From an uncultured Vicinamibacteraceae bacterium (lineage in GTDB: Bacteria; Acidobacteriota; Vicinamibacteria; Vicinamibacterales; UBA8438), in the NCBI GenBank assembly GCA_964569405.1, contig CAZMWA010000108.1, positions 1-56,899 of the forward strand: 56,899 nucleotides of DNA, in the 5' to 3' direction. Made by a program: the position numbers and the translations under genes. This document shows, one piece after another, positions 6,505 through 40,957 of this stretch (position 1 is its first letter; every line of letters begins with the position of its first letter). The notes below the pieces were generated by a model. It did not search any database. It had not been told where the DNA came from and worked only from the letters and a program-made list of their open reading frames with translations.

Positions 6505-7476
6505 ATGAGAACCGGAGTCGCGTGTCTGACGGCGGTGCTTCTGGCGGGTCTCGCGCTCCATACCGGTCGCGCGCAATCCGGCCGCGAGGTCAGCCGCGCC
6601 GAGTACGACGGCTGGAAGACCGAGCTGTCGAACTGGGGGCGCTGGGGCGCCGACGACGAGATCGGCACGCTGAACCTGATCACGCCGGCCAAGCGCCGCG
6701 AGGCCGCCGCGCTGGTGCGCGACGGCGTGTCCGTGTCGCTGTCGCTCGACCTCGATACCGAGGCGGCGGTCGACAACGGCAGCCCGTTCGTCCAGGACAT
6801 CTACGGCGTCGGCGGCGACGGGTGGCACATCCGCTACCACGGCTACGGCATGACGCACATCGACGCGCTCGCCCACGTCTTCGACGACGGGGCGACCTAC
6901 AACGGCTACGTGCCGGACGAGGCGGAGGTGCTGGCGAACGGCCATCGGCGCAGCTCCATCCACAACCTCAAGCACGGCATCGTCACGCGCGGCGTGCTGA
7001 TGGACATCCCGCGGCTCAAGGGCGTGGACTACCTCGAGCCGGGCACGGCCATCTACCCCGAGGACCTCGAGGCCTGGGAGCGGCAGGCCGGGTTCAGGGT
7101 CTCGGCCGGCGACGCGATGTTCGTGCGCACGGGGCGCTGGGTCCGCCGCGCGCGGATGGGCCCGTGGCCGATCGCCGAGCAGGCGGCCGGACTCCACGTC
7201 TCGTGCCTGCCGTGGCTGCGGGAGCGCGACGTGGCGCTGCTCGGCGGCGAGTCGCCGCAGGACGTCGAACCGATGGTCGGCGGTCCGGGCGTCCGGTACG
7301 CGCTGCACAACTTCCTGATAATCCGCCTGGGGATGCACCTGTTCGACAACGTCGACCTGACCGCGCTGAGCGAGACGGCAGCGGAGCTCGACCGCTGGGA
7401 GTTCATGCTCACCGTCGCGCCGCTGGCGGTGCGCGGCGGGACCGGTTCCGCCGTCAACCCGATCGCGACGTTCTGA
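6505..7476 (+). CDS. Cyclase-family protein (kynurenine formamidase-like fold), secreted
   Basis: ATG 6505 after GGGAGGA (6493-6499), in frame with ORF 4426..7476. Motifs SNWGRWGADDEIGTLN and HGYGMTHIDALAH. Paralog at 14282..15346. Confidence 0.8.
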   Translation: MRTGVACLTAVLLAGLALHTGRAQSGREVSRAEYDGWKTELSNWGRWGADDEIGTLNLITPAKRREAAALVRDGVSVSLSLDLDTEAAVDNGSPFVQDIYGVGGDGWHIRYHGYGMTHIDALAHVFDDGATYNGYVPDEAEVLANGHRRSSIHNLKHGIVTRGVLMDIPRLKGVDYLEPGTAIYPEDLEAWERQAGFRVSAGDAMFVRTGRWVRRARMGPWPIAEQAAGLHVSCLPWLRERDVALLGGESPQDVEPMVGGPGVRYALHNFLIIRLGMHLFDNVDLTALSETAAELDRWEFMLTVAPLAVRGGTGSAVNPIATF

Positions 7477-7494: not shown

Positions 7495-8430
7495 TTGCGC
7501 AGAGCCAGCGTCGGGCTGACGTTCATCGGCATGCTCCTGCTGCCGGCGGCGGCGACCGCGCAGCCCGGCGCGGACGCTGCCGGCATCCCGCGCACCCCCT
7601 GGGGCGCGCCGGATCTCATGGGGTACTGGACGTACGACACCACCACGCCCCTGCAGCGCCCCCCCGAGCTGGCGGGCAAGGAGGTGCTGACCCCGGCCGA
7701 GGCGGCCGCGTTCCTCGACGAGCGCTACGTCAGCATCGGCCGCGAGCGGGCCCTGCAGCTCAACGCGGACTGGTGGGTGCCCGGGGATCTGACAGGCGGC
7801 CGCACGGCGCTGATCGTCGATCCGCCGGACGGCCGGATACCCCCGCGGACGGCGGCCGGGCAGGCTCGGCTCGCGGCGCTCGCGCCGGCCCTGAGAACCC
7901 GGAAGGCGGACGGCCCCGAGGACCGCGAGCGCTACGAGCGGTGCATCATGGGCCGCTCGATTCCGATGGAGGCCAGGCCCGCGCCGCGCCTGTTCCAGGT
8001 CTTCCAGACCGCTGACCACGTGGTCCTGCTCAACGAGCAGAACTTCGAGATCCGCCTCGTCCCGCTGACGGGCGCGCCGCGTCTGCCGGCCCCGATCCGC
8101 CAGTGGCGCGGCGAGGGACGCGGGCGCTGGGACGGCGACACCCTGGTCATCGAGACCACGAACTTCAACGGCAAGTGGACGCTGCATGGCGCCGGTCCCG
8201 AGCTGCGGCTGGTCGAGCGGCTCTCGTTCGCCGACCCGGACACGCTGCAGTACGAGTTCACCGTGCACGATCCGGCGTCGTTCGTCCGCCCCTGGACCGT
8301 GCAGTTTCCGATCGCGCGGGCTGCCGGGCCGCTCTACGAATTCGCCTGCCACGAGGGCAACTACAGCCTGCCGCTCATCCTGAGCGGCGCGCGGGCGGAG
8401 GAAGCGGCGGCCGCCAAGAGAGTGCCGTAA
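7495..8430 (+). CDS. Secreted protein, family A
   Basis: TTG start at 7495 after GGAGGAGGA (7482-7490). Motifs TPWGAPDLMGYW, ERCIMG, RQWRGEGRGRWDGDTLVIETTNF, ACHEGNYSLPLILSGARAEE. Confidence 0.8.
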   Translation: MRRASVGLTFIGMLLLPAAATAQPGADAAGIPRTPWGAPDLMGYWTYDTTTPLQRPPELAGKEVLTPAEAAAFLDERYVSIGRERALQLNADWWVPGDLTGGRTALIVDPPDGRIPPRTAAGQARLAALAPALRTRKADGPEDRERYERCIMGRSIPMEARPAPRLFQVFQTADHVVLLNEQNFEIRLVPLTGAPRLPAPIRQWRGEGRGRWDGDTLVIETTNFNGKWTLHGAGPELRLVERLSFADPDTLQYEFTVHDPASFVRPWTVQFPIARAAGPLYEFACHEGNYSLPLILSGARAEEAAAAKRVP

Positions 8431-8466
8431 CGGATCGGAGCGTACGGTGCGCCCGCCCCCCCGCAC

Positions 8467-8898
8467 GTGATGGCCGCAACCATCGTTGCCGCCACCCTGC
8501 TCTCCCTGCTCGCCGTCGGCCTGCACTACGAAGCGCTGGTGCTCGCCTCGGCGGCGGTGCGCGGCCTGCCGCCCGGCTCGGCGCGCTTCGGTGTCGCGCT
8601 GGCAGTCGTCCTGGCGCTGGTGGCGCACATCGTCGAGGTCGTCGTCTTCGGCGTCGGGTGGTACGGGCTGATCCGGGCCGGGGTGGTCGCCCTGTCGGTC
8701 GAGTCGCCGACGATGCTCGACGCCGTCTACTTCTCCGGCGCGGTGTACACGTCGCTCGGCTTCGGCGACATCGTGCCGGTCGCCAACGGCGAGATCCTGG
8801 CGGTGTCCGAGGCGGTCACCGGGCTCGTGCTGATCGGCTGGACCGCATCGTTCACCTTCTTCCAGATGCGGGAGCGCTGGGAGCCGGACCGCGGCTGA
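8467..8898 (+). CDS. Two-TM ion-channel family protein (K+ channel pore-like)
   Basis: 143 aa, hydrophobic, with the pore-like signature YTSLGFGDIVP between two TM helices. Confidence 0.6.
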   Translation: MMAATIVAATLLSLLAVGLHYEALVLASAAVRGLPPGSARFGVALAVVLALVAHIVEVVVFGVGWYGLIRAGVVALSVESPTMLDAVYFSGAVYTSLGFGDIVPVANGEILAVSEAVTGLVLIGWTASFTFFQMRERWEPDRG

Positions 8899-8914
8899 GG
8901 GACCGGCCGGCCGG

Positions 8915-10435
8915 TTACTGGCCGGAGCTGCTCGCCAGCTCGCGCCGTCCGCGCTCGAACAACTGGCGGACGCGGTTGCTGGCCCGGAATTCCGCGAGGA
9001 TGGCGGACCGGAGGCTGGCGGTGAGGCTGTCGAGAATGAAGCCCAGCGTCGTCGCCATCACCGTGCCCTCCTCGGTGCCGGTGTCGGCGAAGCGCCGCCG
9101 GAACGACCGCAGCGTGGCCTCGAACCCGGCCTCGTGCCACTCGTGCACGCTGGCGTCGAGACGGACGAACTCGTCGAGGACGGCCGCATACTCCGGACTT
9201 GGCGGCCGGTGCCAGAACGACACGTCGGGACCGAGCGCTTCGACGTACTCCGGCAGGTAGACGGCGGCCCGCGCCGGCACGCGCCGCACCAGCGCCGGGT
9301 TGTAGCGCTTGGCCTCGTCGCTCGACAGGCCGCTCGCGCGCGCCACGGTCGCCAGCGACGTGTTGCGGGGCACGCGCATGGCGTAGACCCGCGACTGCGG
9401 CATCTCGTCGATCAGCCGCTCGACGGTGTGGACGTTGCCGAAGATCATCTCCGCGTACAGCGCCGAGCGCGGGCCGTAGGTGCGGAAGAGATCCCGGTAG
9501 CGGCGGATGGAGATCTCGCGCAGCGAGCGCGCGAACTCGGAGCCCAGCAGATACTGCTCGCGCGTGTCCCGGCCGCCGAGCCGCTCGCCGTTGATGACCG
9601 TGCGGCCCACGTTCACCCCGCCGGCGTGATGCTCCGAGAGCGCGGGAATGAAGCTGCCGTACATCGTGGCCAGGATGCTGAGGTGGGCCGCGCAGAACGG
9701 CGCCTGCGTGGTCTGGTTGTAGCCCTCGATGACGTACGGCGACAGGCGCTTGAGGAAGTTCCAGTTGCGCGGCAGCCACTGGCACAGGCCGAGCGCGCGC
9801 GCCGAGGAGCGAGCCCGGCCGTTCAGGCCCGACTCGACGACGGCCTGCGCCAGGCCGATTTCGGCCGGCACGCCGAACCGCTCGTAGATGAGGCCCCACT
9901 CGCGCAGGAAGTTTCCGTAGCGCCGGGCGTGCGGCGCCAGGAACCGGCCGCGCGCCGGGTTGTGCACTACCGGCCCGACCCGCGGCGCGAGCAACTCCTC
10001 GAGCCGCTCCCGGCGATCGCTCAGCCGCCGCGGCAGCCGCCGCCCGGCCAGCAGGTCGGCCAGCCCGGGATCGGTCCACTCGCCGTCGCGGGCCCAGTTG
10101 CCCCGCGTCGGAAACGTGGCGAGCAGCCGCCCGTCCGCGCCGCTGCCGAAGACGATGTGCCCGTCCGGAATGGAGAAGATGTGCTGCCAGAACGAGTAGT
10201 GCGGCCTGGTCTCGTCCAGCGCCGCCAGGTCGGCCTCGTAGCGCGCGCGAGAGAAGGCCGCGTAGGCGGGAATCGACGGCGCAGGCGCGGCAGTCGGCTC
10301 AGCGGCCGCGGGAACCAGTTGCTCGGCCGGCGGCGGCTCCTCGTCCGTCTGCGCGCGCAACGGGGCGCCCCCCCACTCCGCACCCGCAACGAGTACGCCG
10401 AGCGCCGCCAGGAACGCCGCCGCCCGCCGGGACAT
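8915..10435 (-). CDS. Lytic murein transglycosylase (SLT domain) with LysM-like C-terminal segment, MltD-like
   Basis: ORF 8915..10531. ATG 10435 gives the signal peptide MSRRAAAFLAALGVLVAGA. SLT motifs AVVESGLN and GLCQWLP. LysM-like segment SLATVARASGLSSDEAKRYNPAL. Confidence 0.75.
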   Translation of the reverse strand: MSRRAAAFLAALGVLVAGAEWGGAPLRAQTDEEPPPAEQLVPAAAEPTAAPAPSIPAYAAFSRARYEADLAALDETRPHYSFWQHIFSIPDGHIVFGSGADGRLLATFPTRGNWARDGEWTDPGLADLLAGRRLPRRLSDRRERLEELLAPRVGPVVHNPARGRFLAPHARRYGNFLREWGLIYERFGVPAEIGLAQAVVESGLNGRARSSARALGLCQWLPRNWNFLKRLSPYVIEGYNQTTQAPFCAAHLSILATMYGSFIPALSEHHAGGVNVGRTVINGERLGGRDTREQYLLGSEFARSLREISIRRYRDLFRTYGPRSALYAEMIFGNVHTVERLIDEMPQSRVYAMRVPRNTSLATVARASGLSSDEAKRYNPALVRRVPARAAVYLPEYVEALGPDVSFWHRPPSPEYAAVLDEFVRLDASVHEWHEAGFEATLRSFRRRFADTGTEEGTVMATTLGFILDSLTASLRSAILAEFRASNRVRQLFERGRRELASSSGQ

Positions 10436-10549
10436 CACCCGACGACCGGTCACCCAATCTCCCAAGGGGCAGGCTGACTCACCGCCATTGGTGGTAATTA
10501 TACGGATTTTTTCCGGATTGCACAGCTTCACACGATTGCACGGAAATTC

Positions 10550-11299
10550 TCACGCCGCGCCGAAGCGTTTCGCGTCGGCCGACGCGTAGCTCGCCATCGC
10601 GCGGTCGAGGCCGACCGTGGCTTCCAGCGTCTCGACCACCTCCGCGAGCCGCTGCCCCGGAATGACGCACGTCATCTCCTCGGACCGCATCCCGGTGCGC
10701 GAGCGGCTGAGCGCGCAGCCCACGCTGGCCGCCACGAGACTCCCCTCCCGCGCCATGGCCACGATGTGGCACTGCGGCTTGCCCTCGATCGGCATGTCCG
10801 GAAAGGCGTCCTTCAACGTCATCAGCCCGAGCCCGTTGATGCGCAGCAGCACGACGTCGGGAGCCGTCCGGCGCTCCGCGAGCGGGCCGTAGACCACCGC
10901 GTCGGGCTTCTCCGCGACGTGCGGCAGGCTCATCACCGCCGCCTGATCGACCCAGCCGGCCTCGAGGACCGCCCCCACGTCGTCCCTGGCGGCCGCCTCC
11001 TCGAGCGTCAGGAAACCGTGCGTGTAGCTCCCGACGCTGCAGTTCGCGTGATCCGCCGCCGCCGTGGCGAACGTGCGCTCAGCGCCGTGCACCCAGAAGA
11101 CGCAGCCCGCGGGCACCTGGCCGGTGCGCCCGTGCTCGTTCGGCTCGGGATAACGAGGTTGCACGCGCGCAGCGGGCACCGGCTCGCCGGGCGCGTGGAA
11201 GGAGATTGCCACGGGCGGCGCGAACGGCTTCAGCGCGGCGACGAGACGATCGTTCAATGCTTGCCAGTCGGCCGTCGGAACGGTGTCTGAGCTTGCCAT
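10550..11299 (-). CDS. DUF169 family protein
   Basis: 249-aa tail of ORF 10550..12781, starting MASSDTVPTADWQAL. Overall pattern (CVFW, NCSVGSYTHGF, CHIVAMA) resembles DUF169. Confidence 0.65.
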   Translation of the reverse strand: MASSDTVPTADWQALNDRLVAALKPFAPPVAISFHAPGEPVPAARVQPRYPEPNEHGRTGQVPAGCVFWVHGAERTFATAAADHANCSVGSYTHGFLTLEEAAARDDVGAVLEAGWVDQAAVMSLPHVAEKPDAVVYGPLAERRTAPDVVLLRINGLGLMTLKDAFPDMPIEGKPQCHIVAMAREGSLVAASVGCALSRSRTGMRSEEMTCVIPGQRLAEVVETLEATVGLDRAMASYASADAKRFGAA

Positions 11300-11305
11300 G
11301 CGATG

Positions 11306-11311
11306 ATTATA
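11306..11311 (-). promoter_or_regulatory. Perfect TATAAT -10 box 6 nt upstream of the DUF169 ATG (leaderless-type geometry)
   Basis: Minus strand reads TATAAT-CATCGC-ATG with no Shine-Dalgarno. The plus strand at the same spot offers GATTAT-7 nt-ATG(11318). Confidence 0.45.
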
Positions 11312-11317
11312 GGGACG

Positions 11318-12061
11318 ATGCCGGACGAGCGACAGGAACGCCTCTGCACCGGGAGCCGCTGGAGCTTCTCCGATCTGTCGGCCCTCTTTCTCAACTGCAC
11401 GCTGAAGCGCAGTCCCGAGCTGTCGCACACCGAAGGACTGATCCGCATCTCGCGGGCCATCATGGAGCGGAACGGCGTCGACGTCGAGCTGCTGCGGCCG
11501 GTCGACTACACCATCGCCGCCGGCGTGTACCCGGACATGCGCGAGCACGGGTGGGAGCGGGACGACTGGCCCGGGATCCTGGAGAAGGTGCTGGCGGCCG
11601 ACATCCTCGTGATCGGCACGAGCATCTGGCTCGGCGAGAAGACCTCGGTCGCCACGCGGGTGGTCGAACGCCTGTACTCCGCGTCGCACCACCTGAACGC
11701 GCACGGGCAGTACGCCTACTACGGCCGCGTGGGGGGCTGCCTCGTCACGGGCAACGAGGACGGCGCCAAGCACTGCGCCATGAACCTGCTCTACTCGCTG
11801 CAGCATCTCGGCTACGTCATCCCCCCGCAGGCCGACGCCGCCTGGGTCGGCGAGGCGGGCCCCGGGCCGTCCTACCTGGACGCGGGCTCGGGCGGTCCCG
11901 AGAACGACTTCACCAACCGCAACACCACCTTCATGACGTGGAACCTGTTGCACATGGCGCGCATGATCAAGGATGCGGGAGGCATTCCGGCGCACGGCAA
12001 CCAGCGCTCCGAGTGGGACGCCGGCTGCCGGTTCGACCACCCGAATCCGCTGTACCGCTAG
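11318..12061 (+). CDS. Flavodoxin-like fold NAD(P)H-dependent FMN reductase family protein
   Basis: ORF 11303..12061. Motifs LFLNCTLKRSP and ADILVIGTSIWLGEKTS. ATG 11318 is preferred because 11303 lies inside the opposing -10 box; the start is uncertain. Confidence 0.7.
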   Translation: MPDERQERLCTGSRWSFSDLSALFLNCTLKRSPELSHTEGLIRISRAIMERNGVDVELLRPVDYTIAAGVYPDMREHGWERDDWPGILEKVLAADILVIGTSIWLGEKTSVATRVVERLYSASHHLNAHGQYAYYGRVGGCLVTGNEDGAKHCAMNLLYSLQHLGYVIPPQADAAWVGEAGPGPSYLDAGSGGPENDFTNRNTTFMTWNLLHMARMIKDAGGIPAHGNQRSEWDAGCRFDHPNPLYR

Positions 12062-17275: not shown

Positions 17276-17474
17276 TCGACCGGCTGCCCGGACGGACGAT
17301 GCTCGCACGGCACTCGGCGGCCGTCGCGGCAACCGTCCGCGCCGACGGGAGCTCTCGCTCGTCCTTCCCGTGGCGCGCCTCACACCTGTGATCCCGGGGA
17401 GATCTGCGTCCGCCGCAAGTCGGCACCCGCCCGGCTTGCCTCTCAACCCCGAGAGCATCGAAGCAGACACGTTC

Positions 17475-17693
17475 ATGGCGGCCTTCGACGCTCGGCACCC
17501 GAACGAGGAAGAACAGCGCGTCCTGCGATACGCTCGCGCCGACGGCACCGCGCGAGGCGTAATCGCGTGCGATCATGACACGATGAGCGATCCGGACGCG
17601 TTTCTGGCGGCCATCGCGCACGGCTTCGGGGCCGCCAAGGCCTACGGTTGCGGTCTGATGCTCATTCGGCGGGCGTCGCAGGGAATGGCATGA
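17475..17693 (+). CDS. Small hypothetical protein translationally coupled to the PHP-ATPase gene
   Basis: ORF 17370..17693 (GTG 17370, or ATG 17475 reading MAAFDARHPNEEEQRVL...). Its TGA overlaps the downstream ATG (ATGA at 17690-17693). No recognisable domain. Confidence 0.35.
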   Translation: MAAFDARHPNEEEQRVLRYARADGTARGVIACDHDTMSDPDAFLAAIAHGFGAAKAYGCGLMLIRRASQGMA

Positions 17694-20452
17694 TCTTCGA
17701 GCGCAACGCTGCTCCACACTGGCACCTGGACGTTCCCGGGGCGCGCTGGTTCAAGGCGGATCTGCACGTCCACACGATAGACGACCTTGCGGGCGGAAAG
17801 GCGAAACTGCCTGTGGGAATCGACGGGCCGCCCGAGGCGCAAGAAACCATCGCGGCCTACGCACGGCGCTTTCTGCAGTGTGCGATCGAGCGGCAGGTGC
17901 GCGTGATCGGCCTCACACCCCATTCGCCGCGAGTCGCCGCGAACGCCGAATCCAGCGCGGTCTGGAAGATCGTCGAGCAGTGGAACAACGACACGGACGA
18001 CGACGGCAGGCCGTTCCGCGAGAGCATATACGCCGTGTTCCCCGGCTTCGAGCCGTGTCTCAAGGATGGCAAGAGCGGTCTGCACCTGCTGTTCCTGTTC
18101 GATCCGGAAGTCGGACGCGACCTCTACCTCAAGGCGTTCGACCTCGTCATGGGAGCGGAGCAGCCCTGGCGCGGGAATCAATTGGCGCTGTCCGCCAAGA
18201 GCGCCGAGCAGGCGTTCGCCGAGCTCCGCAACCTTCACTGCCGTGAGGCCGGCACGAACGCAGACGCCCCAGCCCGGTGGAACTACCTCACGCTCGCGCC
18301 TCACATCGACAACGAGAAGGGTCTTCTCGGTGCGCAAAAGGCGCAGGTGCTGGAACGATTTCAGCACGGTGAAATCGCCGGTCTCGAGCTCGGGGACAAC
18401 AAGCTGCCTCAAGATGCGGTGCAGCACCGGACGTGGTTGCAGACCGGAATGCGCGAGCACCGGCAGGCGTTCTTCCACGGCAGCGACGCGTACTCGGTGC
18501 ACGAGATCGGCAAGCGCCATACGTGGCTGAAGCTCGCCAGCCCCAGAATCGAGGCCTTGCGCCAAGCCTTCATTGCCACCGATTCCCGGATGCGCATCGG
18601 CTACGAACGGAATGCCACCGGGGATCTCGTGGAGATTGCGGCCCCGGATGTCACGGTGAATGAGCGGCCGTGGCTGAAGACCGTGACGGTCAAGGGCCGT
18701 GCGTCGTTCTTCGGCGGCAAGGACGATAGCGAGGCCAGCCGTTTCGACCTGAGCCCGGATCTGACGTGCATCATCGGCGGCAGCATGACGGGCAAGAGCA
18801 CGTTCCTTGACGGCCTGCGCGTGCATGCTGGCGCGCCCTTGCCACAGGACGATCGAATCAGAAGGCAGGTCGAAGCGCGCGGGCGGGAGATGTTTCTCGG
18901 CGGTTCGCCCGAGATCACGATGGAGTGCCCCGGCAGTGACCCGACTGCGCCGGCGCACAAGCGATGGCCGGCGGTGTTCCACGCGCAGAACGAGTTGCAG
19001 CGACTCGCTCAGGAACCGGAGGCGGTCGAGGACATCCTGGCCCGGCTGGTGGCGTCGGAGACACAGAACATCACGGCACACGAAGAACGGCTGAACGCCT
19101 TGGACCGGGAGCTTGGAGGCGCGGTCAAGCGGTTTGCGAAGCTGGACGAGGACGTTGCCGACGCCGAACAGGCCTTCGAGCGGAGCAAGAGTGCCGCCGC
19201 CGCGCTGGGCACTTTCTCGGACGCCGGTATCGAAGACCTTCATCGGGCATCCCGCAACCTGCGCGATTGGGAGACTGCAGCACAGGCAATCGGCGAGTTG
19301 GCGACCAGCCTGAACCGTGTCCTGCAAGCGGCGGAGTCGCTCGATCCGCCTCGTATCGAGGCGAAGCTGAACGGCTCGCTGCAGACCGCCAATGCGTATG
19401 CGCCGGAAGGCGAGTTCCGTGCACACTGGGAACGACTCCGATCGACGCTGGGGGCCGCCCGGGACGAATTGGCGGGCGCGAAGGCGGCCACCGAGTCGGC
19501 CGTTGGTGTCTTGTCCGAGCACGAGCGGGGCGTGCGTACCGACGTCGAGCGCAAGCTTGCCGCGCGCGGCGTGGATGGTGCGAAGATCAAGGAATTCCAG
19601 GTGCTCAGTCGTCAGGCGGCGCTGCTCGGGAGCTATGTAGCGAATCTCGATCAGGCGCGCGACAAGCTCACTGGCGCCGAGCGCTCGTTCAAGGCGCTGA
19701 TCGCGGAGCGGCGGAACCTGGTTGGCCTGCAGAGAGCCGCTTTTGATCGTGTCATCGATACGATCCGCATCGAATTCGGCGGACGGATTTCGGCCCGCAG
19801 AATCGATGACGGCAGTCGCGCTCCTCTCGAAAGGTTTCTCAAGCGACTGAACCAGCGAGGGATTACTCGTTGGTGGAATGACTTGCCAGACGGAAAGAAG
19901 CCGTCGCCCCAGCAGTTGCTCGACAAGCTGAACGCCCGCAAGCTGGCGGGTGTCGGGATGAGCGGTGCGGTCCAGACAACGTTTCTCGGCTGCCTTGGAC
20001 GGCAAGAGCGGCGCGAGTTGGCAGCCGTTCGCTGCCGTGACCGCTATCTGCTCGAGCTCGAAACGGATGCGGGCAGCCGCAGTCTGAGTGCCCTCTCGGG
20101 GGGGCAGCGCGTCAGCGTGCTGCTCTCGTTGCTGCTGGAAACCAAGGACGACCGTCCCCTGGTGATCGACCAACCGGAGGACGAGCTGGACAACCGGTTC
20201 CTGTTCAACACCGTCTTGCCAGCGCTCAAGCGGCTCAAGGGACGCCGCCAGATCATCGTCGCAACGCACAACGCCAACATCGTGGTGAACGGCGATGCGG
20301 ATCAGGTCATCGAACTGCAAGCAACCGCGAACCGGGGTCGTGTCGAGCGGGCAGGGACCATCGAGCACCCCGTCGTGCGGGACGCAATCGTCCGCACGGT
20401 CGACGGTGGCGACGACGCGTTCCGGTTGCGCCGGCTGAAGTACGGATTCTGA
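17690..20452 (+). CDS. PHP-domain phosphoesterase fused to SMC/Rad50-like ABC ATPase (920 aa)
   Basis: PHP motifs WFKADLHVHTIDD, LTPHS, GSDAYS. Walker A GGSMTGKST. Long A/E/R-rich coiled-coil-like middle section. Signature LSGGQR, Walker B LVIDQPEDELD, H-loop ATHNAN. Confidence 0.85.
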   Translation: MIFERNAAPHWHLDVPGARWFKADLHVHTIDDLAGGKAKLPVGIDGPPEAQETIAAYARRFLQCAIERQVRVIGLTPHSPRVAANAESSAVWKIVEQWNNDTDDDGRPFRESIYAVFPGFEPCLKDGKSGLHLLFLFDPEVGRDLYLKAFDLVMGAEQPWRGNQLALSAKSAEQAFAELRNLHCREAGTNADAPARWNYLTLAPHIDNEKGLLGAQKAQVLERFQHGEIAGLELGDNKLPQDAVQHRTWLQTGMREHRQAFFHGSDAYSVHEIGKRHTWLKLASPRIEALRQAFIATDSRMRIGYERNATGDLVEIAAPDVTVNERPWLKTVTVKGRASFFGGKDDSEASRFDLSPDLTCIIGGSMTGKSTFLDGLRVHAGAPLPQDDRIRRQVEARGREMFLGGSPEITMECPGSDPTAPAHKRWPAVFHAQNELQRLAQEPEAVEDILARLVASETQNITAHEERLNALDRELGGAVKRFAKLDEDVADAEQAFERSKSAAAALGTFSDAGIEDLHRASRNLRDWETAAQAIGELATSLNRVLQAAESLDPPRIEAKLNGSLQTANAYAPEGEFRAHWERLRSTLGAARDELAGAKAATESAVGVLSEHERGVRTDVERKLAARGVDGAKIKEFQVLSRQAALLGSYVANLDQARDKLTGAERSFKALIAERRNLVGLQRAAFDRVIDTIRIEFGGRISARRIDDGSRAPLERFLKRLNQRGITRWWNDLPDGKKPSPQQLLDKLNARKLAGVGMSGAVQTTFLGCLGRQERRELAAVRCRDRYLLELETDAGSRSLSALSGGQRVSVLLSLLLETKDDRPLVIDQPEDELDNRFLFNTVLPALKRLKGRRQIIVATHNANIVVNGDADQVIELQATANRGRVERAGTIEHPVVRDAIVRTVDGGDDAFRLRRLKYGF

Positions 20453-20469
20453 ATCCGGACAAGCCAAAC

Positions 20470-21696
20470 ATGGAGTGGCTGGACATCCTGCGGCGCGTCG
20501 AGGTCGGCGAGAACCAACATACGGAATTCAAGCGGGGGCTCGGTGACTTCTCGAGCATCGGCAGGGCGATCTGTGCCTTCGCCAACACCGAGGGCGGCGT
20601 CATCGTGCTCGGGATCACTGATCGTGGCGAGATCGTCGGGGTCAGGGAGAACGCCGAGAACGTACAGGAGCGCCTCACCGCATTCCTGCACACGGGATGC
20701 AGTGCGCCAGTCTCGGCCCGCACGGGACGCCAACAAGACCCCAACGGATGGGTGCATTGGGTTGAAGTGCCGCGCCAGAGAGGGTTCGAGCCGATGCGGT
20801 ACGACGGCCGCGTCTGGGTTCGCCGCGCGCGCAGCAGCGTCGAACCGTCACCCACGGAACTGCAGGAGCTCTACAACACGTTCGGATACATCCTGACCGA
20901 GGAACGCACGATTCAGGATGCGACCGCCGCGCACATCGACCTCGCGGCATTTCGCTCATATCTGAATCGGCTCGGATTCGATACGCAGCAAGAACCGCAA
21001 CCTGACAACGAGGACGACCTTCGCAACCGCGGCGTGCTGGTTGACATCGGCAACGCGTTGAGGGCAACGCTCTACGGCACCCTGGCGTTCGGCCGGGAGC
21101 CGCAACGCTACCCGCAGACCCGGAATTTCCGCATCGCGTGCGCGGCCTACGCGGGTCACGATCGGGCCTCGGAGGTTCTGCAAGTCGCCGATGCCTGCGG
21201 GCGAATGAACGAACAGGTCGATCGTGCAGTCGGGTGGTTCCTGGGACTCGGCCGATTCGAGTCGTACGGACACTTGATCCGTGACGACCGCCATCTGCTT
21301 CCCCGTGCGGCGATTCGCGAGGCGTTGGTGAACGCCGTCACCCATCGCGACTACGCGCTCATGGGCTCGAAGGCGTTCCTCGAGGTGTTCACCGATCGCG
21401 TGGACGTGACCAGTCCCGGCGCCCTCCCCAATCACATGACGGTCGAGCAGGTCCGCGCCGGCGCCAACCCACGAGCGCGGAACGACTCGATGGGCCACTT
21501 CATGGCTGCAATGGGATTCATGGAAGGTCGCGGCAGAGGCTGGTTGATCATGCGCAGGGAGATGCGCGCATTCAACGGGACGGAACCGGAGCTTGTCAAT
21601 GCCGAACGAGACCGACTCGTCAGGGTGACGTTTCGTCTCGACGAGGAGACGCTTTCCGCGCCGCCCAACCAGGAGGCTGCGGAGCGAGACGCGTGA
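20470..21696 (+). CDS. AlbA_2 (Schlafen-like) + HATPase_c_4 domain protein
   Basis: N-terminus ENQHTEFKRGLGDFSSIGRAICAFANTEGGVIVLGITDRGEIVGV (AlbA_2 pattern). C-terminus REALVNAVTHRDYALMGSKAFLEVFTDRVDVTSPGALP...EGRGRGW (HATPase_c_4 pattern). Starts 17 nt after the upstream stop. Confidence 0.8.
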   Translation: MEWLDILRRVEVGENQHTEFKRGLGDFSSIGRAICAFANTEGGVIVLGITDRGEIVGVRENAENVQERLTAFLHTGCSAPVSARTGRQQDPNGWVHWVEVPRQRGFEPMRYDGRVWVRRARSSVEPSPTELQELYNTFGYILTEERTIQDATAAHIDLAAFRSYLNRLGFDTQQEPQPDNEDDLRNRGVLVDIGNALRATLYGTLAFGREPQRYPQTRNFRIACAAYAGHDRASEVLQVADACGRMNEQVDRAVGWFLGLGRFESYGHLIRDDRHLLPRAAIREALVNAVTHRDYALMGSKAFLEVFTDRVDVTSPGALPNHMTVEQVRAGANPRARNDSMGHFMAAMGFMEGRGRGWLIMRREMRAFNGTEPELVNAERDRLVRVTFRLDEETLSAPPNQEAAERDA

Positions 21697-21733
21697 TGGC
21701 GACACCGCCGGGGTTGCCCGCCCTCCGCGGCTC

Positions 21734-21770
21734 CCGGGAGTCTGCGCCGTAGAACGGCGCAGACTCCCGG
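21734..21770. terminator. Perfect 16-bp stem / 5-nt loop hairpin between convergent genes
   Basis: CCGGGAGTCTGCGCCG-TAGAA-CGGCGCAGACTCCCGG lies between the stops at 21696 (+) and 21819 (-). No T-tract. Confidence 0.5.
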
Positions 21771-21818
21771 TGAGGGCTGGTTGGGCGGCAACCGGAGCCG
21801 GAGGCGACGATTGCCGGG

Positions 21819-22817
21819 CTACCGGTCGCCGGTGACGTTCACCCGAATGCGGTACAGCCCGGTGCGGGCCGTCATGTAGAGCGTGCGTCGGTCCGCATCG
21901 CCCCACGCCACGTTGGCCGGTACGAGGTCCGGCTTGATGGTCCCGAGATGCCGCCCGTCCGGCGCGATGACCCAGACGCCCCCCGGGCCCGTCGCCCACA
22001 GGTTGCCCTGCTCGTCGATCTTCAGACCATCGGGGGCGCCGCTCTCCTCCGAGCCGCTGGCGTCGAGCAGCAGCTCGGCCTCGCCGAGCGTGCCGTCCTC
22101 GTTCACCGGGTACGCCATCCACTGCTGCGTGCGGCTGTCGGCCACGTACAGGACGGACTCGTCCGGCGAGAAGGCGATGCCGTTCGGGCCGGTCTGCTCG
22201 GCCAGGCGGACGAGCTCGCCGCCGGGGCTCAGCCGGTAGATCCCGTTCGCATCCTGCTCCTGCGCCTCGGGGCTCGGCAACCCGTAGGGCGGGTCGGTGA
22301 AATAGAGCGAGCCGTCGGAGTGGTAGTCGAGGTCGTTCGGGCTGTTCAACCGCCCGCCTTCGTAGCTGTCGACGACCACGCTGCGCATCCCGTCGGCCGC
22401 AATCCGCGAGATCCGGCCGTTGAAGTGCTCGGTGAAGACCACGTTCCCGTCCGGGTCGACCGCGATGCCGTTCGAGCCGACGATGCGCCCCGCCTCGTAC
22501 TCGCCCTCGTAGACCGGGTTCAGGAAGTCGCTGACGGCGCCGTCCGGGTCCCACCTGACGATGCGGTTGCCGGGAATGTCGCTGAACAGCAGGAAGCCCC
22601 CCTCGTCGTCGATCCACGCCGGCCCCTCGGTGAAGCCGAACCCGCCGGCCAGCTCCTCGATCACGGCGTCGGCCGGCACGAGCGCGTCGAAGGCCGGGTC
22701 GAGGCGCTCGATCGTGCCCGCGCTCGGCGCCGCCTCCTGCTCGGCCGCCGCCTCCGGCTCGGCACTGCCGCCGCACGCCGCCATCGAGAGCACCCCCACA
22801 AGCACCCACATTCGCAT
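21819..22817 (-). CDS. SMP-30/gluconolactonase/LRE-family lipoprotein
   Basis: ATG 22817 gives MRMWVLVGVLSMAACGGS (lipobox). Motifs GFTEGPAWIDDEGGFLLFSDIPGNRIVRW and PNGIAFSPDESVLYVADS. Confidence 0.8.
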   Translation of the reverse strand: MRMWVLVGVLSMAACGGSAEPEAAAEQEAAPSAGTIERLDPAFDALVPADAVIEELAGGFGFTEGPAWIDDEGGFLLFSDIPGNRIVRWDPDGAVSDFLNPVYEGEYEAGRIVGSNGIAVDPDGNVVFTEHFNGRISRIAADGMRSVVVDSYEGGRLNSPNDLDYHSDGSLYFTDPPYGLPSPEAQEQDANGIYRLSPGGELVRLAEQTGPNGIAFSPDESVLYVADSRTQQWMAYPVNEDGTLGEAELLLDASGSEESGAPDGLKIDEQGNLWATGPGGVWVIAPDGRHLGTIKPDLVPANVAWGDADRRTLYMTARTGLYRIRVNVTGDR

Positions 22818-22899
22818 CACGCATCTCCTCCCGTGTCCGTCTGTTCGAAGCGTCCCAAGCGTAGCACGGCGGGCGCCCCTGAACACGACGAAGCCTTCA

Positions 22900-22908
22900 T
22901 GTCAGAAT
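22900..22908 (+). promoter_or_regulatory. Extended -10-like TGtCAGAAT 6 nt upstream of the Uma2 ATG (leaderless-type geometry)
   Basis: TGTCAGAAT-CCCGAC-ATG(22915), with no Shine-Dalgarno. Confidence 0.35.
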
Positions 22909-22914
22909 CCCGAC

Positions 22915-23502
22915 ATGGCGAACACCAGCACAGCCGCGCACAGGAGCGGTTCGGCCCGGACACGCCGGGCCACCTACCAGGACGTGCTTGACGCGCCGGC
23001 ACATCGGGTCGCGGAGATCGTCGACGGTACGCTCTACACTTGGCCGCGCCCGGCACCGCCGCACGCAGTCGCCAGCTCACGGCTGGGTTCCGACCTCGTA
23101 GGACCTTTCGACAGGGGCCGCGGCGGCCCGGGCGGATGGTGGATCATCGACGAGCCGGAGCTGCACCTCGCCGAGGACATCCTGGTCCCCGACCTCGCGG
23201 GCTGGCGCCGGGAGCGAATGGCGGAGTTGCCGGACACGGCATACTTCACCCTCGCACCGGACTGGGTGTGCGAGGTGCTCTCGGTCTCGACGCGCAGGTT
23301 CGACCTGCATGGCAAGCGTCCGGTCTACGCCCGCGAAGGGGTCGGGCATCTGTGGCTCGTGGAGCCCGCGGACCGCACCCTGGAGGCGTTCGAGCTGCGT
23401 GAAGGACAGTGGGTGCTGATTGCGAGCGCGCAGGACAATGATCCGGTCAGCATCCGCCCTTTCGATGCAGTCACCTTCAGCCTCGGGGATCTCTGGCCTT
23501 GA
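22915..23502 (+). CDS. Uma2-family (DUF820) PD-(D/E)xK endonuclease
   Basis: ATG 22915 is in frame with ORF 22561..23502. ATYQDVLDAP...VAEIVDGTLY, LVPDLAGW and APDWVCEVLS are typical Uma2 motifs. Confidence 0.8.
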   Translation: MANTSTAAHRSGSARTRRATYQDVLDAPAHRVAEIVDGTLYTWPRPAPPHAVASSRLGSDLVGPFDRGRGGPGGWWIIDEPELHLAEDILVPDLAGWRRERMAELPDTAYFTLAPDWVCEVLSVSTRRFDLHGKRPVYAREGVGHLWLVEPADRTLEAFELREGQWVLIASAQDNDPVSIRPFDAVTFSLGDLWP

Positions 23503-23592
23503 GCGCCCCGATGGTGAGCACATCACGGAAGGTGGGAACACGGTCAGCTCCCGCGGCCGGGTCAGCATCCCGCTGACGCATTCCCCCACGGC

Positions 23593-24384
23593 TCACGTGA
23601 CGGGGTCTGAGCCGGCTCTCCGTGAAGTATCCAACCTCACGGAGAGCCGCTCGCCGGTCCCGTTGACGCTGAGACGGAACACCCTGTTCGGCCACTCCGA
23701 GAGGGCCCCGGATTCGGCCAGCACTCTGCCGAGGGCCTTGGCATGGGCAGCCATATCGCCCTTGCCGGCGAGGACCTCGCAATCCCTCACTCGCACGGAG
23801 CCGTTCCACGACTTCTTCCCGCTCAGTCGTGTAATCGCCGTCACATCAAGGTCGACATCCTGGCCGTGGACTGCCCTCTCCAACGCTGACAGCAACTCTT
23901 CGATCCGAGACTCCCAGAAAGGCCCGTACATGCTGCGGTGCCGTCCTTCGGCCGGGTGCTTCGGTCCGCCAACCCTCTTGCGTTGTTGTAGTGTGCTCCT
24001 GATCCGTTCGATCTCGGCCGCGCCGACGCCCGTCGGCGAAACGACTGTCAACAGGCGAGCGATGAGGTCGAGCGCAGCACTAGCATCGTCGTCCGTCAAT
24101 GGATCCTGATGTGCCCATTTGTTCCGGTAATAGAGCAGACGGACGATACAGCTCTTGGGAAAATTCAATTGGCGGAAGAGGGGGCCCCACGTCCTCTGCA
24201 TCAGTTTGAGCAACCCATCGACGCCCCACTCGGTCACCGGCTTGCCGCGATACCACGGGTATTCGTCGACGAACCGCCGGCAAACGGAGTCGTCCAGGAG
24301 TTGCACCCTCTCCTGCACGAACGGTTCCATCTCCGCCTTCAATAGGTACAGCGCATCAGCAAGAAGGGCTTGGTTCGTTGCCAT
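23593..24384 (-). CDS. Swt1-like HEPN domain protein with uncharacterised C-terminal domain
   Basis: HEPN R-x4-H motif in LLYYRNKWAHQD. Helical N-terminal half. The C-terminal ~130 aa is unrecognised. Local GC is visibly lower. Confidence 0.65.
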   Translation of the reverse strand: MATNQALLADALYLLKAEMEPFVQERVQLLDDSVCRRFVDEYPWYRGKPVTEWGVDGLLKLMQRTWGPLFRQLNFPKSCIVRLLYYRNKWAHQDPLTDDDASAALDLIARLLTVVSPTGVGAAEIERIRSTLQQRKRVGGPKHPAEGRHRSMYGPFWESRIEELLSALERAVHGQDVDLDVTAITRLSGKKSWNGSVRVRDCEVLAGKGDMAAHAKALGRVLAESGALSEWPNRVFRLSVNGTGERLSVRLDTSRRAGSDPVT

Positions 24385-24615
24385 TTCGTCCGTCGGCCGC
24401 TGGAACCGCCAGTCTCACCGGCCGCTTATGGTTTCGCGAGCGATTTCGATGCAGGGTGCTCCGAGGCGGCATCATCCGGCCATTGGGTCGGCGAATGGCG
24501 GTCAGGCCGGTCGCAGGCACCTCAACGCGAAGTTTGTTGTCTCCACGAACGCTCCTCCGGTGCCACGCGCTGGAGGCAGACGACCGAGACAGGCGCCGCA
24601 GCCGTGGGAGCCCCG

Positions 24616-38779: not shown

Positions 38780-39394
38780 TCACGCGGTCGCCTCGGCAAT
38801 GACCGCGCGGAGCTTCTCGAAGCTGCGGGAGCGACTGCGATCCGGGTCGAAGTGGGCCGCAACCGCCCGCGCGGCTTCCACCTTGCGCAGGCCTGTCGCG
38901 AAATAGCCGTGTCGCTTCAACACCCGTTCGAAGGCCTCCCACGTGCCACCCAGAATGGCATCGGGATCCCGAAACCGCGCCTCTTGAGCCACCGTCCGAC
39001 TCACCCGCGGATAGGCGGCACAGACCGCGTCCCAATCGCCAAAGTACCAGGCTTCGAGCTCTTCGACAACGACGCGGTTGGCCACCTGCCACGCCTCTTC
39101 CGCGGCTGCCGTGCGCGACAGCAGGCCTGCGCCGCCTGCCGCCTGTTCGAGCTCCGCCTTCAGCTCCCGGCAGTCGTCATCGTCCCGGTCGACAAGCACG
39201 ATCAGCCGCCAGTCGGAAGGGAGCCAGTAGCGATAGCCGAGCAAGCGACTCGGGAGGTTGCCGAGAATATCCTGCTTGCACCGGAACGGATGGACCTCGA
39301 AAGTGCAGCCCGGCGGCAGAAGGCGTGGAAGAAGGCCTTCCAGGAACGCCTCCATCGACGGTTCTTCGACCAGAAGAACCAGGTGTTCCGCCAT
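38780..39394 (-). CDS. DUF4276 family protein (putative small TOPRIM-like nuclease partner)
   Basis: 204 aa. LVLLVEEPSMEAFLEGLLP and the acidic cluster VLVDRDDDDC. The ATG directly abuts the ATPase stop (no gap). Confidence 0.6.
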   Translation of the reverse strand: MAEHLVLLVEEPSMEAFLEGLLPRLLPPGCTFEVHPFRCKQDILGNLPSRLLGYRYWLPSDWRLIVLVDRDDDDCRELKAELEQAAGGAGLLSRTAAAEEAWQVANRVVVEELEAWYFGDWDAVCAAYPRVSRTVAQEARFRDPDAILGGTWEAFERVLKRHGYFATGLRKVEAARAVAAHFDPDRSRSRSFEKLRAVIAEATA

Positions 39395-40648
39395 CTATCC
39401 GTCGCTCGAGGCGGCGGGCCGAGTGGGCGATCCCTGGTCCACCAGCGGATCGCCGACGCCGAAGTGTCCCTCCAGCCAGAGGGAACCGAGATCCGCGCCG
39501 GCGCGCACGAATTCGGGCACGCCGAGCAAGTCGGCGACGCGCTGCGCCTGTGTGAAACCGGACTCGTCGCGCCACAGAACGCGCACCTCGTCGGCGCGCA
39601 GCGTGTGCAGAAAGAACGGGGAGTGAGTGGTGACGAGCAACTGCGTCCGCTCGCACGCCGCACGGCATTCCTCGGCCAGCTCTGGCAGCAGGCGCGGATG
39701 CAGATAGTTCTCCGGTTCCTCGATGCCGATGAACGGCGGCGGCGCCGGATCGTAGATCAGCACCAGATAGGCGAGCATCTTCAGCGTCCCGTCGGAGGCG
39801 AAGCGTGCAAGCACCGGGCTCCTGAACGGGGCGTCCTTGATTTGCAGCAGCAACCGGCCGTCCCGCATCGTGTCGGCCAGTACACGCTCGATGCGCGGCA
39901 CACGTCTGCGCAGCGTCTCGAATATGCGAGTGAGCCTCTCCGGATGACGTTCGTCGAGATACTGAATGACGTTCGCGAGGTTGTCTCCGGACCTAGTCAG
40001 CCGCTCATGCGGCCCCGCCTCCGGTTGGCCACGCGCGCTGTCGGCAGAGAGGTAGGACAGGTGCCAACCCATGATGAAGTTCCGCAAGGCGCCTACGCGC
40101 GGATGGTCCTGGAATTGTCCAAGCGCATTCACCGCAAGAAGATCGGGTGAGCTCAACGGAATCTGGACGCGCTTGTCTTGCGCGTCGGGGAGCTCCCCGC
40201 TGACGGCCTGACCGGCACCGCGCTGGTAGTCGAGGAACCGAAACGGCGCGCCGTAACTGCGCCGCTTCCAGCTCAGCCACTCGTGCACCACCACCGGCAG
40301 GCCCAGGTCCTCGTCTACAGCGAGGTGGTACGTGATGAGCGGCGTTTTCGGCCGCTCCCGGTACTTGATCTCGATCACGAGCGGCCCGTCCGTCTGGGGC
40401 CCGTCCGTCGCACGGGTCTTGAGCTCTTTCGCTCTGCCGCGCTTGTCCCACGCCCGCCGCAAGCCGGACTCGAAGCACTCCGCCAGAAACGCGAACACGT
40501 CGAATATCGTCGACTTGCCGCTGCCGTTCGGTCCGAGCAGCACGGTCAGCGGCGTGAGATTCTTGAGCTCGATGTTGCGCAGGGCGCGGAAGTTCCGGAC
40601 CCGCAGGTATTCGATGCGCGCAGGGCTGGGCGCGGCGGCTGCCGGCAT
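39395..40648 (-). CDS. ABC/SMC-head-type AAA ATPase (AAA_21/AAA_23-like)
   Basis: [17 protein letters not shown], Walker [12 protein letters not shown], Walker [25 protein letters not shown] 40648 (the track's TTG 40654 is possible). Confidence 0.85.
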
Positions 40649-40654
40649 GGTCAA

Positions 40655-40672
40655 GGAGAATCACTCCGGCAG
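40655..40672. repeat. 18-bp perfect direct repeat, copy A
   Basis: GGAGAATCACTCCGGCAG overlaps the stop codon of 40661..40906. An identical copy lies at 42209-42226. Confidence 0.85.
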
Positions 40673-40906
40673 GCCCAGTATGGCCAGCACGCCCCCAAGG
40701 ATGGCGAGCGTCTGTGCGAGCATCGTACCCGCGAAGCGCAACGTCTGGCGAACCTCAAGGCTGGCGAGCTCGGCGTGCAACGCCTCCGGTGTCACGTGGT
40801 CGCCGTGCTCGGCGGCCTCACGAACGGCGTCTGCGATCGTGTCTGCCCGCTCGGTCGAGAGGCCTGTGCCCGTCAACCTGCGAGCGATGGCATACGTATC
40901 GAGCAC
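40661..40906 (-). CDS. Small C-terminally membrane-anchored protein, DUF1640-like
   Basis: GTG start. LDTYAIARRLTGTGLSTERADTIADAVREA followed by a C-terminal TM helix. TGtTAGCAT lies 6 nt upstream of the start. Confidence 0.5.
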   Translation of the reverse strand: MLDTYAIARRLTGTGLSTERADTIADAVREAAEHGDHVTPEALHAELASLEVRQTLRFAGTMLAQTLAILGGVLAILGLPE

Positions 40907-40957
40907 GAAATCATGCTAACACGGGCACGCAGGCCGCCCTCCGCACCAACCTCGTCT

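Follow-up and report, generated by a model that had tools for sequence, protein, structure and literature searches.

A divergent trlF-trlG gene pair of an uncultured Vicinamibacteraceae bacterium, apparently left over from a type I-E CRISPR-Cas locus

The stretch of DNA analysed here, referred to as the window, comprises 56,899 nucleotides of contig CAZMWA010000108.1 (assembly GCA_964569405.1) from an uncultured Vicinamibacteraceae bacterium and contains three consecutive open reading frames (ORFs) on the plus strand (Table 1), namely a small ORF, a gene for a 920-aa protein identified below as TrlF, and a gene for a 408-aa protein resembling TrlG. A preliminary description, made from the letters of the sequence, had proposed them as a candidate defence operon whose three-gene arrangement was not known to it as a described system. 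The three ORFs are indeed present, the small ORF and trlF overlap in the tetranucleotide ATGA (17690-17693), and 17 nt (20453-20469) separate trlF from trlG. As judged from the comparisons below, the pair is a divergent, trlR-less member of the published trlF-trlG family and not an undescribed three-gene system, and nothing else but short fragments survives of the type I-E CRISPR-Cas (clustered regularly interspaced short palindromic repeats and CRISPR-associated proteins) locus in which it formerly lay between cas6e and cas1. This identity and history of the locus are regarded as highly probable. Homologous loci in other genomes are designated by L numbers.

Table 1. Features of the locus in the window, with the blastn counterparts in the related locus L003.
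Feature	Window position	Strand	Basis or description	L003 position
Upstream flank	...17330		blastn	...2270
Residual island between chromosomal flanks common to relatives	17331..21698		flank homology limits	
Small ORF (cas5e::cas6e chimera)	17370..17693	+	107 codons from GTG, 72 from ATG	
cas5e fragment (middle of cas5e)	17408..17582	+	blastn, 87% identity to L001/L003 positions 7001-7174	7001-7174
cas6e (casE) end, last 36 codons plus stop	17585..17693	+	PF08798, PADLOC, collinearity with L001-L003	
trlF, 920 aa	17690..20452	+	NCBIfam NF045780	
trlG-like gene, 408 aa	20470..21696	+	Pfam SLFN_AlbA_2 and HATPase_c_4	
End of cas6e, trlF and trlG	17585-21712		blastn	7896-12022
Perfect 17-bp hairpin, 3-nt loop	21734..21770		RNA fold z = -7	

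The whole 920-aa protein matches the NCBIfam model NF045780 (TrlF family AAA-like ATPase, an equivalog), covering profile positions 2-944 of 944 with a score of 355.4 bits (1e-105) that narrowly passes the cut-off of 350. The 408-aa protein was correctly described as combining two Pfam domains, SLFN_AlbA_2 (2e-20) and a C-terminal HATPase_c_4 (4e-17). Both are homologous to the proteins encoded by the Yersinia ruckeri plasmid pYR3, the TrlF proteins being 21% identical over their full length (E 3e-28) and the TrlG proteins 27% identical over 372 residues (E 1e-36). The assignment of the pair to the temperature restriction locus (TRL) is made because the TrlF cut-off is passed, the homology to pYR3 TrlF and TrlG is full-length, and the architectures match the published ones. 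The arrangement is not undescribed, for trlR-trlF-trlG has already been published as the TRL of Photorhabdus laumondii, a three-gene locus which blocks growth at 36 C (Hapeshi et al. 2020; PMC7554251), and TrlF has its own NCBIfam model. In Photorhabdus, trlR encodes a 79-aa putative regulator, trlF was annotated as a histidinol phosphatase, and trlG, encoding AlbA_2 and HATPase_c_4 domains, was mis-annotated as recG (PMC7554251). The operon is induced on temperature upshift and its deletion leads to tolerance, while spontaneous temperature-tolerant clones carry substitutions, stop codons or insertion sequence (IS) insertions in trlG; homologous operons occur in other genera, including that on pYR3 (PMC7554251).

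The window pair shares with the TRL of Photorhabdus and its plasmid-borne copies in Yersinia ruckeri (pYR3), Klebsiella and Pseudomonas syringae the same two large proteins in the same order and in tight juxtaposition, and the AlbA_2 plus HATPase_c_4 architecture of TrlG is common to both. The two groups differ in that identity is only 21-27%, in about 45 extra residues in the PHP domain, in the spacing of the genes, which overlap in TRL but lie 5-22 nt apart in loci of the window type, and in the hosts, which are Gammaproteobacteria for TRL and Acidobacteriota together with other metagenome-assembled genomes (MAGs) of sponge type for the window-type pair. In the window lineage, unlike in TRL, a type I-E cas operon surrounds the two genes. 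TRL possesses trlR, whereas the window does not, and tblastn with pYR3 TrlR and the helix-turn-helix (HTH) protein of Klebsiella recovered no homologue in the window or in any sponge-clade locus.

The small ORF, previously reported to contain no recognisable domain, matches the C-terminus of Cas6e at its residues 71-101 (PF08798, CRISPR_assoc, 3e-10), and Cas6 and Cas6e models of PADLOC match its last ~30 residues. A Cas5e fragment was found as well, since tblastn with Cas5 residues 153-203 gave 82% identity at window positions 17427 to 17579, in the same frame as the Cas6e tail. The ORF is composed of Cas5e residues 153-203 joined in frame to Cas6e residues ~202 to 237, and it is because these two parts share a frame that it is recognised as a deletion chimera; on this sequence evidence it is a lineage-specific cas5e::cas6e remnant and not a component of the system. 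The cas6e part retains the motif AGGGAA, which resembles a Shine-Dalgarno sequence, and its stop codon TGA, overlapping the ATG of trlF. It is collinear with the 3' end of the complete cas6e (237 aa) of the closest relatives (L001-L003, TrlF 87% identical), in which trlF overlaps cas6e by the same ATGA. The overlap in the window is inherited from a cas6e-trlF junction like that of L001-L003. No homologue of the small ORF lies upstream of trlF in the 80 other loci examined, and the ORFs which commonly end at the trlF start in these loci are mutually unrelated. That ATGA recurs nevertheless reflects the sequence context in which trlF starts.

The cas operons of the relatives give the former setting of the pair. 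In L001-L003, cas6e is preceded by cas5, cas7, cse2, cse1 and cas3, while L091 and L006 (TrlF 81% identical) contain the gene order cas3-cse1-cse2-cas7-cas5-cas6e-trlF-trlG-cas1-cas2, downstream of which lies an array with canonical type I-E repeats of 29 nt. These operons occupy the same chromosomal site as the window island, and the window flanks are common to them. The genes upstream in L003 are those of the window (cyclase, Mo-oxidoreductase and cytochrome c), L002 overlaps the upstream flank in the cytochrome c gene only, and homology with both stops at 17330. The window re-joins L091 at 21699, just past the trlG stop, in what is in L091 the DNA beyond the array, where Uma2, the convergent SGL gene and the hairpin are found. 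Of a type I-E locus, the window retains no more than 175 nt of cas5e and 109 nt of cas6e, no CRISPR repeat occurs in the window even with 3 mismatches allowed, and neither CRISPR arrays nor tRNA genes nor Rfam families were found in it. Because of the gene order in L091 and L006, the junctions mapped by alignment with the relatives and the lack of any remaining repeat, the pair is placed between cas6e and cas1 in the ancestral operon, with three deletions around it, the first of which would have removed cas3 through mid-cas5, the second late cas5 through most of cas6e, and the third cas1, cas2 and the CRISPR array.

Synonymous divergence between the window and L091 amounts to 0.6-0.7 in trlF and trlG (17690-21696) against 0.08-0.10 in the SGL and Uma2 genes (21819-23502), and that between the window and L001/L003 to 0.34-0.40 in trlFG against ~0.2 in the upstream flank. 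As the divergence of the pair exceeds that of the flanks, the island is considered, from these substitution rates, to have undergone recombinational exchange separately from the flanking DNA. Closely related genomes display this type I-E locus in varied states of erosion (L001-L003, 12-18 kb; L091, 325-2726): cas3 is truncated or split, an ISAZ013-type transposase stands in place of cse1 and cas3, or IS110, IS21 and IS66 elements with a reverse transcriptase gene occupy the site of cas1, cas2 and the array. In the window itself, the 77 nt (17331-17407) that separate the upstream flank from the cas5e fragment, filler DNA at the deletion junction, are without match in the relatives examined.

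The lower G+C content (GC) attributed to the unit is real but smaller than claimed, being 0.64-0.68 at 17-21 kb against ~0.69-0.72 in the flanks, not about 60% against 70-80%. Likewise, the perfect hairpin said to end the unit exists, with a stem of 17 rather than 16 bp, but it sits in flank DNA outside the unit, between trlG and the convergent SGL gene, and is kept in L091 at the 3' side of the CRISPR array, so that it is not specific to trlFG. The region 21715-21790 folds at -60.5 kcal/mol, far more stably than shuffled sequence; no T tract follows the stem, and no canonical terminator for the trlFG unit was found in the window.

The motifs previously quoted for the 920-aa protein are all present and are kept across 30 homologues. 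TrlF contains a PHP-fold phosphoesterase region (~17-300) followed by an ABC-type ATPase head, the halves of which (363-371; 803-860) are split by a coiled coil of ~260 residues. The putative metal ligands of the PHP region, H26 and H28 (DLHVHT), H78 (TPHS), E121, H132, H205 and D266, are invariant or nearly so in these homologues, and the ATPase motifs are invariant (Walker A, G363-T371; signature, S803-Q806; Walker B, D827-D831; H860). When six sequences from the window clade, gammaproteobacterial TrlF and the anti-phage protein Ppl are aligned, the N-terminal motif GxRWxKxDxHxHT (x represents any amino acid), Walker A, the Q-loop glutamine, SxGQ, the DQPED Walker B and the H-loop are invariant. 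The Walker B motif (residues 827-831, window 20168-20182) reads D-Q-P-E-D, with glutamine where the catalytic glutamate is usual, which suggests from sequence a nucleotide-binding switch and not a fast motor with rapid hydrolysis. Support by hidden Markov models for an ABC ATPase is given by Pfam AAA_21 (1e-8, above cut-off), SMC_N and AAA_23 staying under their cut-offs. Long helices are predicted at ~435-695, in line with the coiled-coil-like insert noted earlier, and the Rad50/SMC-like character holds in Foldseek, where the best matches of a low-confidence model are the Smc head with coiled coil, JetC, MukB, Rad50 and LmuB. This full-length AlphaFold (AF2) model is poor (predicted local distance difference test, pLDDT, 64), and its matches are uninformative for the PHP part; a search of the PDB with the full-length TrlF profile likewise gave ABC matches only.

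For the N-terminus, the earlier assignment as a PHP phosphoesterase finds no support in Pfam but is upheld as a fold by structure prediction and by the invariant His/Asp/Glu set. A domain-only AF2 model of residues 1-335, built from 36 sequences (pLDDT 77; predicted TM-score, pTM, 0.78), has just six Foldseek matches with E<1e-3, all of them PHP enzymes (probability 1.00, E 1e-4 to 9e-4), namely Vibrio cholerae ribonuclease (RNase) AM, the PHP domain of PolC (two entries), BAD_1165 (two entries) and Cv1693, the next match having E 0.19. Among 35 TrlF N-termini, Pfam yields only sub-threshold PHP matches in distant TrlFs (E 0.004-0.018), together with PHP_C at 9e-4 in L079. On account of the Foldseek matches of the domain model and the invariant ligand set, a PHP fold, that is a (beta/alpha)7-barrel with HxH and further His/Asp/Glu ligands, is accepted for the TrlF N-terminus as modelled. 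The PHP system Ophion is unrelated.

In TrlG, residues 5-60 weakly resemble structures of SLFN5, SLFN12 and SLFN14 (E 0.005-0.03). The likeness to eukaryotic Schlafens (SLFN5/11/12/13/14) concerns the N-terminal region with the AlbA_2/Schlafen-core motifs; the SLFN helicase domain is theirs, TrlG carrying HATPase_c_4 at its C-terminus in its place.

Ppl, a single-gene PHP plus ATPase anti-phage system (Gao et al. 2020), had been named as a possible relative. TrlF is a collinear homologue of it over the full length (24.5% identity, tblastn with plasmid-borne Ppl), sharing the motifs listed above and the domain logic, but falls far short of the Ppl model of NCBIfam (NF042955, 143.7 bits against a cut-off of 1000) and scores far under the cut-off of the related Spaf_1101 model as well. 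Ppl acts alone and has no TrlG-type neighbour on Escherichia coli plasmids, whereas TrlF is nearly always paired with TrlG. In PADLOC, the remaining matches of TrlF are also partial and of ABC type (MAD3, LmuB at 1e-11, AriA, PtuA and GajA), while TrlG matches Schlafen-containing models associated with prokaryotic Argonautes (pAgo) only. The SMC-like complexes Lamassu LmuB-LmuA, Wadjet JetC and SbcCD/Rad50-Mre11 resemble TrlF in combining an ABC head, a long coiled coil and a nuclease. In these complexes the nuclease is a separate Cap4, Toprim or Mre11 subunit, whereas TrlF has a fused PHP domain; no kleisin or LmuC-like partner accompanies TrlF; and the HMM matches of TrlF cover the signature and Walker B region only.

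A scan of genome collections yielded 80 species-level loci, nearly all from MAGs, with TrlF at 50-81% identity; in all, 288 stretches of the collection encode a TrlF relative. They are patchily distributed over at least 10 phyla (Acidobacteriota, Chloroflexota, Actinomycetota, Pseudomonadota, Gemmatimonadota, Verrucomicrobiota, Latescibacterota, Poribacteria and others), and many of the MAG names are typical of sponge symbionts. The adjacency of an AlbA_2 gene seen in the window is general, as a full-length TrlG homologue, called intact when 380 residues were covered, lies directly downstream of trlF in 70 of the 77 loci that could be assessed, with a gap of 5-22 nt (median 9) in intact loci. 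TrlG is truncated in L082 and probably intact in L037, where the alignment of 379 residues, starting at residue 13, is one residue under the cut-off; five loci contain trlF without an intact trlG, among them L064 with a frameshifted trlG remnant. The ratio of nonsynonymous to synonymous substitution rates (dN/dS) is 0.19-0.22 for trlF and 0.10-0.13 for trlG, similar to cas and flanking genes. The trlF-trlG pair is a genuine, tightly linked unit under purifying selection. Clustering of 739 neighbouring ORFs revealed no universal third partner, the largest cluster reflecting generic ABC-transporter similarity. In the sub-clade L086-L089, a 372-aa ORF without Pfam match (L086/L087, 10970-12088; L088/L089, 6372-7031) overlaps the trlG stop by 4 nt, possibly as a third gene specific to this lineage; the sub-clade also has a NYN-domain gene upstream, and HicAB and an AAA_21/AAA_15 ATPase further downstream.

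The expectation that known defence genes neighbour the pair is borne out in part, by recurrent restriction-modification and CRISPR contexts. The cas genes adjoin trlFG only in the clade of the window and are neighbours in ~6 of 91 loci in total; in an unrelated Paracoccaceae genome (L063), type I-E cas genes lie ~3 kb from the pair. Type III res-mod genes are located directly upstream in eight loci from four phyla, five of which share a UvrD-like helicase gene downstream, and a fused Eco57I/MmeI-like (IIG) enzyme is encoded upstream in four loci (L081, L084, L036 and L075), its ORF ending in an ATGA overlap with trlF in L081 and L084. In L005, a type II methyltransferase with MjaI and an AlbA_2-AAA_21 gene are found downstream of trlFG. 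On Klebsiella plasmids (L093, 4377-8164; L095, 3118-14133), the pair is part of a type I restriction-modification operon with the order HTH-hsdR-trlF-trlG-hsdS-AAA ATPase-hsdM, in which each junction from hsdR to hsdM overlaps by 4 nt, or by 19 nt at trlF/trlG. Pseudomonas plasmids carry the pair alone, and conjugative as well as mobilisable plasmids are among its carriers. Pfam counts for the nearest genes of ~70 loci gave 8 N6_N4_Mtase, 5 PIN and 3 Eco57I in the two nearest upstream positions, and 6 UvrD, 3 ResIII, 2 Cas1 and 3 AAA_21 in the one or two nearest downstream positions. In the eight type III loci (L010, L012, L013, L019, L020, L022, L027 and L045, about 3.5-16 kb), the 3' end of mod precedes trlF, the 450 nt upstream of trlF are 80-94% identical in translation across MAGs of Latescibacterota, Terriglobia, Opitutales and Dehalococcoidia, and a res-mod-trlF-trlG(-UvrD helicase) island recurs within subsets of them, which suggests, at the level of sequence identity, recent transfer of res-mod-trlFG across phyla, apparently inside sponge-type microbiomes.

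PrrC of EcoprrI, like RloC, is an ABC-type anticodon nuclease, encoded within a type Ic restriction-modification operon. It resembles trlFG as a latent module with an ABC ATPase inside a primary DNA-targeting operon, be it between hsdR and hsdS or between cas6e and cas1; the sequence relation is limited to the ABC fold, and a restraint of trlFG by its host operon, or a guarding of that operon by trlFG, would be suggested by analogy with PrrC only.

TrlF is proposed to be Ppl-like, a nucleotide-gated exonuclease of PHP fold joined in one chain to an ABC head of SMC/Rad50 type that binds nucleotides and bears a coiled coil, and would sense free DNA ends and/or a drop in nucleoside triphosphate (NTP) levels, as reported for Ppl. 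Ppl is reported to be an NTP-inhibited 3'-5' exonuclease on single-stranded DNA that requires 3'-OH ends (PMC12904381), and a phage counter-defence gene against it has been reported. TrlG would be a Schlafen-like nucleic-acid-binding protein that delivers or licenses growth arrest, probably via RNA; it most likely executes or licenses the arrest because it is genetically required for it in Photorhabdus. Together the two proteins may constitute a mobile abortive-type module against phages or plasmids, often riding in primary DNA-targeting immune operons, and the recurrent embedding in type I, III and IIG restriction-modification operons fits a defence role. The overall explanation, a TRL-type pair left from CRISPR-Cas loss and acting as a Ppl-like arrest module, is moderately favoured, a defence role as such is rated slightly above even, and the specific division of labour between TrlF and TrlG is tentative and doubtful. 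A bolder version, in which trlFG is a dedicated second-line immune module that was inserted independently into type I-E CRISPR-Cas and type I, III and IIG restriction-modification operons, works with these primary systems and persists beyond their decay, as in the window, appears improbable; it might possibly use 3' DNA ends made by the host systems to finish off invader DNA, or might, by analogy with PrrC, fire upon inhibition of the host system.

Several observations weigh against this proposal. A search of the literature found neither an anti-phage or anti-plasmid phenotype for TRL nor a follow-up to the 2020 paper, and many loci sit amid housekeeping genes. No trlF mutations occurred among the tolerant Photorhabdus clones (PMC7554251), for which reason TrlF is unlikely to be the sole effector and may restrain TrlG; it may be either dispensable for arrest or a restraint on TrlG, a misfit with a simple model in which TrlF is the effector. 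An RNase activity of Schlafen type, with its catalytic residues, is putative for TrlG. PADLOC-DB 2.0, to which the preliminary description had looked for a check, contains no model matching both proteins of the pair, and the best-scoring stretch of its Ppl model (1e-32) is confined to the C-terminal ~120 residues of TrlF. For the PHP domain, neither PF02811 nor PF13263 matches the N-terminus of window TrlF even at E<=10, a PDB profile search with the TrlF N-terminal alignment returned nothing relevant, and the TM-scores of the Foldseek matches are modest (0.34-0.48). Finally, no promoter serving trlFG after the loss of the cas operon was identified in the window, where no sigma-70-like site was found.

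The original three-gene model, in which the translationally coupled small protein would serve the PHP-ATPase and the Schlafen-like protein as a functional subunit or as a regulator, could appeal to a real ATGA overlap, to a remnant still in frame over the cas5/cas6e junction and to the small upstream gene trlR of the published TRL operon. As the ORF is made of pieces of Cas5e and Cas6e, is confined to the window lineage in a family with no conserved small upstream ORF, is unrelated to TrlR and owes its overlap to an older cas6e-trlF junction, the model is largely refuted and very unlikely. The remnant might instead be non-functional as a protein but kept in cis, its 3' end giving trlF a ribosome-binding site and translational coupling (or a promoter) after the cas deletion. 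The deletions spared the last 36 cas6e codons, AGGGAA and the ATGA overlap, the fusion is in frame, and trlF and trlG are intact under purifying selection, all of which agree with such a role, although retention of the frame is expected by chance in 1 of 3 cases, L006 and L091 have a spacer and not an overlap between cas6e and trlF, and a promoter-like site is lacking in the window; the cis role is held possible at well under even.

As to function, TRL may not be immune at all but a physiological stress or growth-control module, or an addiction cassette like a toxin-antitoxin pair, spread by selfish mobility. The sole phenotype on record is a temperature-induced growth arrest relieved by trlG mutations, the housekeeping neighbourhoods of many loci agree with this view, and the missing trlF mutants fit a TrlF that restrains a toxic TrlG. 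Against it stand the homology of TrlF, over its full length, to Ppl, a validated anti-phage protein, the repeated occurrence of the pair within restriction-modification and CRISPR operons, and its carriage on conjugative and mobilisable plasmids. Conditional toxicity is itself typical of abortive-infection systems, and this alternative is considered rather unlikely. An accessory function in type I-E CRISPR-Cas or restriction-modification, for example in processing DNA ends, feeding spacer acquisition or guarding against inhibition, which would make the window copy an orphan, could draw on the cas6e/cas1 position in L006 and L091, the overlap with cas6e in L001-L003, the hsdR/hsdS position with 4-nt overlaps, the separate association with type I-E cas genes in L063 and the need of Ppl for 3'-OH DNA ends. 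Yet cas neighbours are few, the pair is intact despite cas loss in the window and L001-L003, most genomes as well as the Pseudomonas plasmids carry it alone, and the partner systems are of unrelated types, fitting the clustering of defence islands; an accessory function is accordingly given little credence. A housekeeping DNA-repair enzyme like SbcCD or Rad50-Mre11 would likewise possess an SMC/Rad50-like head and coiled coil with a phosphoesterase, here a fused one, but the patchy, horizontally transferred distribution over at least 10 phyla, the location in a variable island, the scores far under the cut-offs of the Rad50 and SbcC models in NCBIfam and the obligatory Schlafen-like partner make this reading extremely unlikely.

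The trlF-trlG pair was known before and is mechanistically poorly understood; added here are a divergent member, the kinship with Ppl, the nesting in operons and the survival after CRISPR-Cas loss. TRL emerges as a widespread two-gene cassette, carried by plasmids of enterobacteria and Pseudomonas and present in mostly sponge-type MAGs from at least 10 phyla, whose only known phenotype is a temperature-triggered growth arrest. Its relation to Ppl as a two-component sister of that nuclease, its repeated nesting in restriction-modification and CRISPR operons and its retention under purifying selection as CRISPR-Cas erodes offer testable routes to its function, and the pair may represent a bacterial context in which Schlafen-type domains serve immunity. 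For annotation, the locus illustrates that a short ORF seemingly coupled to a defence gene can be what is left of a deleted neighbour.

Further genes of interest are located elsewhere in the window. Just past trlFG, a Uma2-family endonuclease (22900-23502, plus strand; PADLOC candidate PDC-S03, 1e-15) and a Swt1-like HEPN plus DUF7664 protein (23593-24384, minus strand) are encoded, and the window stretch 20603-24591 has no blastn match in L002. A second patch of low GC (0.64-0.67) lies within 39000-42000, where the ORFs at 38852-40150, 40178-40963 and 41063-41716 have no Pfam match and stand beside an AAA_21/AAA_15 ATPase of OLD/Gabija/PARIS type (39395-40654, minus strand); this patch may be another small defence islet.

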